From UHGV virus genome UHGV-1682877: 64,000 nucleotides of DNA. One strand, 5' to 3'. The position numbers and the translations under genes are program-made. Below the pieces are notes generated by a model. The model was given only the letters and a program-made list of their open reading frames with translations, was not told the DNA's origin and did no database searches. This DNA is from a virus. Shown piece after piece: positions 22,666 to 24,631 of the stretch (the first letter of the stretch is position 1; each line of letters opens with the position of its first letter).

Positions 22666-23889
22666 TTGGCTTTTGATTTTAAACCTATTACAAAAATTTG
22701 TTTAAATATTACAGAAATGTGCCAGTGTGCTTGTCCTTTTTGTTTTGCAGAATATCACCCTCATAGAATATCTTACCAAGTTGCAAAGGATGCGGCAGAC
22801 TGGATTATTAAAAATTCAGAATTAACAGGAGAAGTAGGATCTATCGGTTTTTTTGGCGGTGAACCGCTTCTTGAATGGGATACGATTATTGTTCCACTTA
22901 CCAAGTATATTAAAGATGAGCGAGGATTAAAAGATTTTGAATTGGGTGTTACGACAAATTGTCTTTTGCTTGATGAAGAAAAGTTAAAATTTATGAAAAA
23001 ATATGACTTTGGTTTACTATGCTCTATTGATGGAGCAAAAGAAACTCAAGATTATAATAGACCTTGCCGCAATGGACAAAGTAGCTTCGATATTATTGAT
23101 GAAAAGATTCCTTTAATTCTAAAATATTTTCCAGATACTTTAATGCGTTCTACTATTATTCCCGCAACATGTGAACATTATTTTAAAAATTTAGAGTATG
23201 GATGGAATAAAGGATTCTATCATAGTTTTACAATTATTAATCAATTTGAAGAATGGCCCGAAGATAAAAGAAAAATTCTTGAAGAGCAAGTTAGAAAATT
23301 TTCTAATTATTTAATTACATGTTTTAGAGAAGGATTGCCTTTTATGCGCCAACGAACTCTTGAACAAGCAATTAATAAAATAGTTGGAACAAATCTTCAT
23401 TTTGCTCAAGGTAATGTTGAAAGAATTAAATTTGATGATTTAGGAAGATGTTGTGGACTTGGTAGTGGATATGGTGCTATTAATTATGAAGGAGACATTT
23501 TTACTTGTCAAGAAGCAGTAAGCCGAGAAAAAGATAAAAATATTTTTTATATTGGAAATATTTATACTGGTATTGACAAAGAGCGTCAACAAAAATTATT
23601 TGATGATGTATATGCTAATGGTGGAAATGTTTATAATTCTGTCGATAAAAATAAGTGTAAAGAATGTCCAATAGAAGCTAGCTGTAATATGAATAGTTGT
23701 TTAGTTAATAATTATTTAGAAAGACAATTATTTGACATTCAAGCAGATGCAATGTGTTGGTGGAATAATCTTATGGCGAAAGAAGCTCAATATATTTGTT
23801 ATATACTTGGTACAGAAAATAATGAATATTTTAAAGATTATTTTAAATGGGTAATTACCTCACAAGGAGGGACACTTAGCAATGATTGA
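22666..23889 (+). CDS. radical SAM / SPASM-domain enzyme (peptide-modifying maturase-like)
   Basis: CQCACPFC gives Cx3Cx2C; FFGGEPLL glycine-rich SAM motif; C-terminal CCGLGSGYGAINYEGDIFTC and CKECPIEASCNMNSC match SPASM auxiliary-cluster spacing; TTG 22666 chosen for SD AAGGAGG. Confidence 0.75.
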   Translation: MAFDFKPITKICLNITEMCQCACPFCFAEYHPHRISYQVAKDAADWIIKNSELTGEVGSIGFFGGEPLLEWDTIIVPLTKYIKDERGLKDFELGVTTNCLLLDEEKLKFMKKYDFGLLCSIDGAKETQDYNRPCRNGQSSFDIIDEKIPLILKYFPDTLMRSTIIPATCEHYFKNLEYGWNKGFYHSFTIINQFEEWPEDKRKILEEQVRKFSNYLITCFREGLPFMRQRTLEQAINKIVGTNLHFAQGNVERIKFDDLGRCCGLGSGYGAINYEGDIFTCQEAVSREKDKNIFYIGNIYTGIDKERQQKLFDDVYANGGNVYNSVDKNKCKECPIEASCNMNSCLVNNYLERQLFDIQADAMCWWNNLMAKEAQYICYILGTENNEYFKDYFKWVITSQGGTLSND

Positions 23890-24631
23890 GTATATTCCTA
23901 TTTCTAACAATTTAGCAGAAACTGTAGCAGAAATTGCTAATAAAAAATTTGAAGGCATGGTGCGAGAAGGAATAAATAATGGCGGAATTGTTGCTTTTGC
24001 AGATGGTTGTACTGGTTGCGAAAGTGGATGTTCTGGTTCTTGTACTGGAAGCTGTAGTAGCAGTTGTAAAGATAGTTGTAAGGATACTTGCAAAGATACC
24101 TGTAAAGGAAGTTGTAAAAACGGATGTAAAGAAGGGTGTAAAGGAAAATGTACTGGTAGCTGTCAATCTAGCTGCGAAAATGCCTGCGCACCTGGGTGTC
24201 AGTATAATTGTGAAGATGGTGGGCAAACAGTAGAAACTTACAATTCTACAAGGCAGTATACTTTTGATGGTTGGTCTAGTACCGTAAGTCCAAACTCTAC
24301 TATTAATATTTCTGCTGATGATTGGAATACCCTTGCAGGTAAAGTTAAAGGAGCAGCTCGTGCGGGTTGGGAGAAAAATGTAAGTGTGACAAGAGCATCT
24401 TCTGGAGGATGGATTACTGCTGCAATATATAATTCTATGGTTAATGGATTAAATTCTTTGGGTAATTCTTTAGGAAGTGTTGGTTCTTCGACTTACATTG
24501 AAGCAAGTCATTTTTCTAAATTAACCAATGCATTAAATAAAGCAACTATTCCAAAGAAAAAATGCTGCGAGTTAAAAGAATATTGTATGGAAAGTTGCAA
24601 TGAAACAAGAGGCCCATTAACTGGTTCTTAA
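23882..24631 (+). CDS. Cys-repeat protein (about 19 consecutive CxxxC units), putative substrate of the upstream rSAM/SPASM enzyme
   Basis: Repeat block GCTGCESGCSGSCTGSC...CKDSCKDTCKDTCKGSCKNGCKEGC; start overlaps rSAM stop by 8 nt. Confidence 0.7.
   Translation: MIEYIPISNNLAETVAEIANKKFEGMVREGINNGGIVAFADGCTGCESGCSGSCTGSCSSSCKDSCKDTCKDTCKGSCKNGCKEGCKGKCTGSCQSSCENACAPGCQYNCEDGGQTVETYNSTRQYTFDGWSSTVSPNSTINISADDWNTLAGKVKGAARAGWEKNVSVTRASSGGWITAAIYNSMVNGLNSLGNSLGSVGSSTYIEASHFSKLTNALNKATIPKKKCCELKEYCMESCNETRGPLTGS

Follow-up and report, generated by a model that had tools for sequence, protein, structure and literature searches.

The virus genome UHGV-1682877 is represented here by a stretch of 64,000 nucleotides (nt), hereafter the window, which carries on its + strand, between positions 22,666 and 24,631, a gene for a radical S-adenosylmethionine (SAM) enzyme with a SPASM region, followed directly by a gene for a protein of 249 amino acids (aa) in which a cysteine recurs at every fourth residue over a long array. 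Both open reading frames (ORFs) are confirmed as originally predicted, at 22666..23889 and 23882..24631. The stop of the enzyme gene overlaps the start of the array gene by 8 nt, which implies the translational coupling that the original prediction had proposed, and the arrangement is kept in relatives, where the two genes likewise show start/stop overlaps or small gaps of comparable size. Judged from the signals listed below, the pair is most likely a bicistronic unit of its own, running from the terminator of the preceding gene through a Shine-Dalgarno sequence, the enzyme and the 8-nt overlap to the putative substrate. An alternative TTG start at 22630 was rejected in favor of 22666 because the longer ORF would begin inside the terminator-like hairpin at 22620-22639; the Shine-Dalgarno sequence also fits the start at 22666. 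The features of the locus are as follows.

22620..22639, + strand: terminator-like hairpin AGGAGGGCTTTTGCCCTCTT with a T-rich tail, closing the upstream gene, 5' of the pair
22651..22659, + strand: Shine-Dalgarno sequence AAAGGAGGT of the enzyme gene, 6 nt ahead of the TTG start
22666..23889, + strand: radical SAM/SPASM enzyme gene, 407 aa, start TTG at 22666, stop TGA at 23887-23889; no N-terminal recognition element (RRE) domain of the kind found in maturases of peptides that are synthesized on ribosomes and modified post-translationally (RiPPs)
22720..22743, + strand: CX3CX2C radical SAM cluster motif (C19, C23 and C26 in CQCACPFC), invariant in the homolog alignment
22855..22872, + strand: GGEPLL SAM-binding motif, residues 64-69 (FFGGEPLL, residues 62-69)
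23452..23757, + strand: SPASM auxiliary-cluster region, C263 to C364, with seven invariant Cys and G276 (TIGR04085; alignment to the SPASM region of CteB)
23866..23871, + strand: Shine-Dalgarno sequence GGAGGG of the second gene, within the enzyme coding sequence, 10 nt 5' of the ATG at 23882
23882..23889, + strand: 8-nt overlap ATGATTGA, shared by the start of gene 2 and the stop of gene 1
23882..24631, + strand: Cys-repeat protein gene, 249 aa, start ATG at 23882, predicted substrate
23882..24007, + strand: N-terminal region, residues 1-42 (MIEYIPISNNLAETV...IVAFADG), leader- or anchor-like
24008..24211, + strand: Cys array, residues 43-110, 18 Cys, units C-[KSTEQ]-[GDSNE]-[STG]
24218..24562, + strand: helical domain, residues 113-227, motifs DWNxLA, ITAAIYNS and IEASHFxxL; helices from AlphaFold2 (AF2), predicted local distance difference test (pLDDT) ~62
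24563..24598, + strand: C-terminal Cys cluster CCELKEYCMESC, CC(E/Q)LGE in relatives

A conserved pairing of enzyme and array genes

The association of the two genes was surveyed in both directions, with homologous enzymes down to ~31% identity to the window enzyme. In the forward direction, 29 of 31 distinct viral or metagenomic loci (enzyme E ≤ 1e-43) have a Cys-dense run starting no more than ~0.55 kb downstream of the enzyme, and arrays of at least 8 Cys lie within 6 kb upstream or 1.5 kb downstream at 13 of 19 more distant loci. For the reverse direction a DNA pattern of ten TGY codons at 12-nt spacing was used, which matched at least 120 viral loci. Among the matches listed, 24 of the 27 heterogeneous in-frame arrays have a same-strand radical SAM/SPASM homolog 0.1-2.8 kb away, and two of the three exceptions are on contigs that end at the relevant flank, while the controls, again among the matches listed, gave no radical SAM homolog near any of the 57 simple 12-nt tandem repeats or the 36 out-of-frame matches (0/93). 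Chance adjacency of the enzyme and array genes is excluded, and their pairing is a real, conserved and widespread phage system.

The local arrangement is the same when read from either gene. The contexts retrieved with substrate homologs all have the enzyme gene directly upstream, overlapping or a few nt apart, except for L007, a short contig with the weakest substrate match (P0010); the enzyme is immediately upstream of the array gene in L002, L003, L004, L005, L006, L071 and L072, and enzymes of 58-59% identity likewise have the array gene directly downstream. A scan of IMG/VR with the enzyme alignment found 63 viral loci with enzyme homologs, and the pairing persists across very different neighboring genes. 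Some enzyme homologs carry an intein, as in L006 (2046-4352, a 768-aa product with Hint, LAGLIDADG and Intein_splicing matches) and P0035, and the 1275-aa Cys-array protein of L130 has an apparent intein-like insert.

Several phages with the same pair need genetic code 15, in which TAG is read as Gln (among L006, L007, L072 and L001, the phage phAss-1). In the GenBank record of phAss-1 (OQ749652) there is a gap after the radical SAM gene, at ~9140-9670 in locus coordinates, and with TAG read as Gln this gap encodes a protein with Cys-rich ends and the three-motif helical domain of the window protein; one published phage genome thus contains the pair in unannotated form. For the window itself a code with TAG read-through was considered and rejected, as it did not lengthen the ORFs, and the standard code was used. 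Of the window's 58 + strand ORFs that reach 100 aa or more, 48 end in TAA, 10 in TGA and none in TAG, and no suppressor tRNA was found in the window.

The enzyme, the Cys array and their known relatives

The enzyme belongs to the radical SAM superfamily by its C19-x3-C23-x2-C26 motif and by Pfam Radical_SAM (PF04055), which scores 53.9 bits against a gathering cutoff of 29.5; Fer4_12 was also matched. The SPASM region was judged against the pattern CX9-15GX4C ... CX2CX5CX3C ... C, which coordinates a pair of auxiliary [4Fe-4S] clusters, and the enzyme has C263-x12-G276-x4-C281, C331-x2-C334-x5-C340-x4-C345 and C364, the last spacing being x4 where the pattern has x3. Over residues 250-407 the model of the SPASM domain, TIGR04085, reaches 30.2 bits (cutoff 27), and a Pfam scan of the full enzyme returned no SPASM model at E ≤ 1. 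Fourteen homologs, 38-61% identical to the window enzyme, were aligned, and in this alignment C19, C23 and C26, the run F62 F63 G64 G65 E66 P67, and G276 are invariant, as are the seven SPASM cysteines (C263, C281, C331, C334, C340, C345 and C364); an eighth auxiliary-cluster ligand is not conserved among the 14, as in open-site enzymes. The Cx3Cx2C and GGEPLL motifs and the SPASM-type cysteines that had been read from the sequence at the outset are thus borne out by PF04055, TIGR04085 and the invariant cysteines, and the profile search against radical SAM/SPASM families, on which the original prediction had staked itself, finds the SPASM region present.

Ranked against NCBIfam, the enzyme scores highest with PapB (150.2 bits, cutoff 340), followed by the nif11-type maturase (131), the SCIFF maturase (120.2, cutoff 425), CcpM (115), TIGR04115 (95.1, cutoff 350) and QhpD (93.5), and the anaerobic sulfatase-maturating enzyme anSME reaches only 41.5 bits (cutoff 349). 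A sequence search of the PDB puts CteB first (5wgg, E = 1.7e-20), in an alignment that takes in the SPASM segment, and the closest fold to the AF2 model of the enzyme (pLDDT 89) is again CteB, with a template modeling (TM) score of 0.71, followed by ChlB and anSME (0.66). No N-terminal RRE was found in the profile alignments, the PDB sequence alignment or the AF2 model. We read the enzyme as lacking this domain because the radical SAM motif already stands at residue 19 and alignments to RRE-bearing families begin at residues 75-95 of those families; the AF2 model opens with a barrel strand at residues 10-16. On these comparisons the enzyme is most likely a SPASM maturase with three clusters, from the neighborhood of PapB, SCIFF (CteB) and QhpD, that has no RRE.

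The Cys-repeat protein has its cysteines at residues 43, 46, 50, 54 and so on to 110, giving 18 Cys in one CxxC and 16 consecutive CxxxC units; the array is therefore as real as originally described, although the count of about 19 CxxxC repeats was slightly high. Four further cysteines follow at residues 228, 229, 235 and 239. Because the long + strand ORFs of the window hold 1.9% Cys, an array of 18 is far beyond chance, and its periodicity appears to be kept at the protein level, since a recognizable 12-nt DNA repeat is confined to 24062-24143 (82 nt, with a CKD(S/T) core). The copy number of the array varies between close strains, the close variant P0002 having exactly 36 residues (nine tetrads) fewer. 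Of the 18 units that begin with Cys (16 Cx3 tetrads, a CTG unit at the N-terminal end and CEDG as the last), 8 contain Asp or Glu.

Ten homologs of the Cys-repeat protein were found, which share an N-terminal region of ~40 aa (..DY(I/T)PIS.Y.AE..G), an array of variable length, a helical-type domain with the motifs DWN.LA.YV, ITAAIFN and I.A.DF.AL, and a tail of the CC(E/Q)LGE type. The N-terminal motif common to relatives is (I/Y/F)-P-x-(S/E/D)-x-(F/Y/L)-L, and the N-terminal region is absent in some of them (P0009, L029 and L037). A tblastn search of the Cys-repeat protein against 50,697 phage records gave no match; the array was probably hidden by the low-complexity filter, and isolated phages show no match to the C-terminal domain. 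A profile search with that domain as sole query retrieved 12 clusters, none of them named. The only PHROG matched was phrog_6085, a family without assigned function.

The combination of a radical SAM maturase and a Cys-Xaa-Xaa-Xaa target is already catalogued as a predicted system in NCBIfam and Pfam (TIGR04115, TIGR04114, TIGR04117 and PF27846). The original claim that such a pair was not described must be narrowed to that extent; in the literature that was searched, no paper or experiment on it turned up, nor any account of a phage radical SAM enzyme that has a Cys-repeat protein as its partner. The CXXX-repeat target system was defined in silico and reportedly goes back to Haft and Basu in 2011, and we know of no established chemistry for it or for the phage pair. 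The Pfam family PF27846 ('tSAM_targ_Cxxx_rpt') is precomputed on P0001, an ortholog of the window protein with 88% identity, and on P0003-P0009, and the homologs P0003 (32.2 bits) and P0009 (38.8 bits) exceed the cutoff of 20 for TIGR04114 ('tSAM_targ_Cxxx'). As in the TIGR04115 system, a radical SAM/SPASM enzyme adjoins a protein with Cys at every fourth position, with the 8-nt overlap in the window, and the members of TIGR04115 also lack an RRE-type N-terminal extension, given that the match to the 359-position model begins at position 4. The window enzyme nevertheless falls far below the TIGR04115 cutoff and is nearer to PapB (related phage enzymes score 49-127 bits with TIGR04115), and whereas TIGR04117-type targets are peptides of ~98 aa, the phage substrate has 249 aa with a folded domain, and FN3/Hoc-like domains in relatives. 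The pair represents a form, carried by phages, of this catalogued CXXX-repeat target system, with an enzyme outside the curated equivalogs and whole proteins as predicted substrates.

The better-studied relatives delimit what the enzyme may do. CteB (5wgg; TIGR03974), the closest by both sequence and fold, shares the seven-Cys SPASM arrangement, but its first ~90 residues, an RRE-like domain, have no counterpart in the phage enzyme, the alignments starting at CteB residue 91. SCIFF peptides are ~45 aa long with six Cys, in contrast to the 18-Cys array within a protein. The enzyme resembles anSME (TIGR03942; PDB 4k36-4k39) in fold and in being a radical SAM/SPASM enzyme without an RRE, and anSME modifies a Cys in a full-length protein; unlike the proposal made below, however, anSME oxidizes its target to formylglycine without any cross-link, and no sulfatase gene or C-x-P/A-x-R sulfatase motif was found near the pair. 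The curated family with the highest score, PapB (NF047865), is the freyrasin maturase acting on PapA, and related phage enzymes score 181-259 bits with it. PapB has three [4Fe-4S] clusters, converts the CXXXD repeats of PapA into six Cys-to-Asp/Glu thioethers, binds the substrate Cys to auxiliary cluster 1 and tolerates acceptors from i+1 to i+7 (PMC12373016). The leader docks on the RRE in PapB (PMC12373016), whereas the phage enzyme has no such domain. Several window tetrads carry Asp or Glu at +1 or +2, in keeping with the PapB substrate, but most (CSGS, CTGS, CKGS) have no carboxylate acceptor.

Proposed cross-linking and the rival explanations

The explanation we prefer, and to which we give somewhat better than an even chance, is a dedicated enzyme-substrate pair in a large, gut-type phage of an anaerobic host that builds a thioether ladder on a virion-surface or extracellular protein. 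We infer that the Cys array is the substrate of the enzyme, as a synteny that holds strictly in both directions would be difficult to account for if the enzyme had some other target. By analogy, the chemistry is most likely thioether cross-linking of the array, because nearly all top family matches and the closest structure (CteB) are thioether maturases, because repeated CXXXD motifs are the native target of PapB, which holds the substrate Cys on auxiliary cluster 1, and because seven rather than eight auxiliary-cluster cysteines are conserved, which is compatible with an open site; the link from a count of seven Cys to an open coordination site draws on what is known of CteB and anSME. The lack of an RRE, together with the leaderless substrates of some relatives, suggests that the array is recognized directly.

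In the proposed mechanism, the enzyme would recognize the Cys array, or the protein that carries it, directly and without an RRE. On the model of CteB and PapB, auxiliary cluster I would take up the thiol of a substrate Cys at its open site, a 5'-deoxyadenosyl radical derived from SAM would abstract hydrogen from a nearby residue, and an S-C thioether would then form between the Cys and that residue. Repeated over 18 Cys at a four-residue register, this would produce a ladder of small rings, and an otherwise disordered segment rich in Gly, Ser, Thr, Lys and Asp, bridging the short N-terminal region and the C-terminal helical domain, would become rigid and resistant to reductants and proteases. 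The appendage would be made in the cytoplasm, where disulfides are unreliable, and an anaerobic-only enzyme that makes non-reducible cross-links fits a phage of strict anaerobes.

A number of observations weigh against this proposal. Cys is the sole conserved residue in the arrays, and the position after it (+1) is Lys, Ser or Thr in the window clade and Glu or Gln in 88% of units in distant phages, so that one carboxylate acceptor of the PapB kind cannot serve for every member; the clades use different acceptors, or else the link is made to the backbone C-alpha independently of the side chain. The enzyme lies below every curated NCBIfam family cutoff, and its function is therefore not transferable by family membership, while the window Cys-repeat protein itself scores 17.5 bits with TIGR04114 against the cutoff of 20. 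Structure prediction had been suggested for the pair, and it served well for the enzyme, whose model is confident and CteB-like, but was uninformative for the Cys-repeat protein, where an AF2 model from an eight-sequence alignment has a pLDDT of 43, with the array disordered and the C-terminal domain helical at ~62. Literature searches found no biochemical data on any member of the family. As to the proposed location on the virion, the fibre-like genes upstream in the window give marginal matches only, and in L004 and L071 the pair lies among replication-type or unassigned genes.

The nearest enzyme families are RiPP maturases, and the Cys-repeat protein could itself be a precursor of that type, with its N-terminal 42 residues or its helical domain as leader or follower and its cross-linked core cut out as a poly-thioether toxin, signal or anti-competitor peptide. 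A short conserved N-terminal motif does stand ahead of the array in many relatives, the 110-130-aa helical N-domain that precedes the array in a second lineage (described below) resembles a long leader, and protease genes are found nearby (in the window the S8 peptidase with SLH domain at 28149-29210, in L004 and L008 ClpP-like genes). We nonetheless consider a precursor role unlikely, given that the enzyme has no RRE, that the substrates P0009, L029 and L037 are without any N-terminal region, that arrays are fused to folded FN3/Hoc-like domains and also occur in proteins of up to 1275 aa, and that no transporter or dedicated leader peptidase stands beside the pair; the ClpP-like genes, moreover, score as head maturation proteases.

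Improbable to much the same degree is an array that binds metal or Fe-S clusters or forms disulfides, while the enzyme carries out another reaction, such as the conversion of Cys to formylglycine, or acts on another target. Copper storage proteins lined with CxxxC motifs, and metallothioneins, are the comparison here, and it is consistent with such a role that Cys spacing alone is conserved while the intervening side chains vary widely, that the C[EQ]xxC arrays of distant phages are compatible with helices, and that anSME, a detectable relative of the enzyme, acts on whole proteins without an RRE, as this enzyme would. An array of this kind would, however, leave the two-way synteny hard to account for, and the thioether maturases are far closer to the enzyme than anSME (150 against 41.5 bits). 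The conserved SPASM cysteines number seven and not eight, whereas anSME ligates both auxiliary clusters fully, and the window array, rich in Gly, Ser and Thr and predicted to be unstructured, is unlike a helical metal-storage bundle. We see only the slightest chance that the two genes are neighbors by accident, the enzyme being an auxiliary metabolic or nucleic-acid-modifying one and the Cys-rich protein unrelated to it. Phages do carry radical SAM enzymes for other ends, and weak QueE-like and viperin-like matches were obtained from PHROG and NCBIfam, but the forward, reverse and control counts given above effectively refute an accidental association, the stop codon of the enzyme overlaps the start codon of the array gene, and the pairing survives down to ~31% enzyme identity across very different neighbors.

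Beyond the thioether cross-linking proposed for this pair, we raise more tentatively, and with some doubt, a general scheme in which stalks with Cys at every fourth residue, forming the core of virion-surface fibre or decoration proteins, are turned into poly-thioether ladders by leader- and RRE-independent phage radical SAM/SPASM enzymes in many phages of anaerobes. To our knowledge, no other virion protein is enzymatically cross-linked by thioethers. If the proposal is correct, the chemistry of radical SAM peptide maturases would reach beyond small secreted peptides to phage proteins of full length, RiPP chemistry would be applied to whole structural proteins, and phages of strict anaerobes would possess a non-reducible substitute for disulfides. 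It would also give a function to TIGR04114/TIGR04115 and PF27846, families known solely from genome context, and would show much of their diversity to be viral. As a thioether catalyst that is repeat-processive and independent of an RRE, the enzyme would be of interest for protein stapling (compare the engineering of PapB, PMC12373016), and the enzyme-substrate pair is small (2 kb) and self-contained.

A possible virion link, phage context and distant lineages

The link to the virion comes from the relatives of the Cys-repeat protein. FN3 domains are fused to the array in the related substrates of L012 and L045, the array protein of L039 matches the Hoc-like head decoration family phrog_10993 (1e-84), and genes for tail or tail-fibre proteins adjoin the related pairs of L012 and L028, with an internal virion protein as neighbor in L031 and a head maturation protease in L008. 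These domains and neighbors support, short of proof, a role on the virion surface, and by analogy the Cys-repeat protein is most likely a virion-surface or otherwise extracellular appendage; it is the domains and neighbors of the relatives, and not the window protein itself, that suggest this. The Hoc-like/FN3 proteins of Firmicute phages (phrog_10993; FP_Brigit, FP_Mushu) are homologous to the C-terminal two-thirds of related array proteins such as that of L039. The similarity to the Faecalibacterium phage proteins is confined to the part outside the Cys array (query residues 137-525), and the radical SAM matches in the phage collection included none from a phage of this genus. Faecalibacterium-like bacteria or other Clostridia may be the hosts of the phages related to L012-L048. 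The window protein differs from the Hoc-like/FN3 proteins in having another, helical C-terminal domain, with no match in isolated phages. Upstream in the window, Mtd_N/tail-spike-like N-termini were noted in the ORFs at 18224 (a weak match) and 19847 (by eye only), which hint weakly that the pair sits at the end of a virion block. A common N-terminal motif, ...YYLKD(A/E)EVRA..., is present in the ORFs at 20375 and 21613. The nominal start of the ORF 22088-22528 falls within a strong terminator-like hairpin (22087-22117), and its true start is probably later, as in the gene call of L002.

The phage origin of the window is supported by its replication-module PHROGs, its 17 tRNA genes, the tail-spike-like N-termini and the 63 IMG/VR loci. 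Strong PHROG matches at 29.6-60 kb mark a downstream replication module with RNA ligase, PhoH, topoisomerase II, DNA ligase, DnaB, RecJ, a Dda-like helicase, a large DNA polymerase and the anaerobic ribonucleotide reductase NrdD (58061-60349). A protein with an S8 peptidase and an SLH domain is encoded at 28149-29210, and this gene together with NrdD points to an anaerobic host with an S-layer. A copy of the pair at 88% identity is present on a 107-kb metagenomic contig, and megablast of positions 20000-26000 matched only a 40-nt stretch of tRNA-Ser. The tRNA genes form two arrays (14649-17659 and 25100-26358), the second of which begins ~470 nt past the Cys-protein gene; ARAGORN assigns a four-base anticodon, 'tgaa', to the tRNA at 16876-16948. 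Adjoining the S8/SLH gene is a DUF2828/DUF7788 protein (26571-28094; phrog_850, 'RNA-binding protein'), and phrog_850 proteins recur within a few kb of the pair in L002, L004 and L037.

A second lineage of phage radical SAM/SPASM enzymes (L103-L175; for example L138 at 619-3560 and L105 at 5968-10294) is 21-24% identical to the window enzyme. Its members lie downstream of proteins composed of a 110-130-aa helical N-domain (ELK..I..E..RR) and an array of up to ~250 residues that runs to the C-terminus; the 821-aa array protein of L105 has glycine-rich repeat domains at its end. A comparison by hhalign of the C-terminal domain of the window protein with the helical N-terminal domain of this second class gave a probability of 37% and E = 3.6e-4, a value on which we do not claim homology. 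Other distant relatives of the enzyme, at 24-26% identity (L055, L057, L058, L062 and L070), have very large proteins 1-5 kb upstream, with many C[EQ]xxC arrays and up to 65 Cys in a run. These enzymes are followed by a family-9 glycosyltransferase, which hints at a further modification step.

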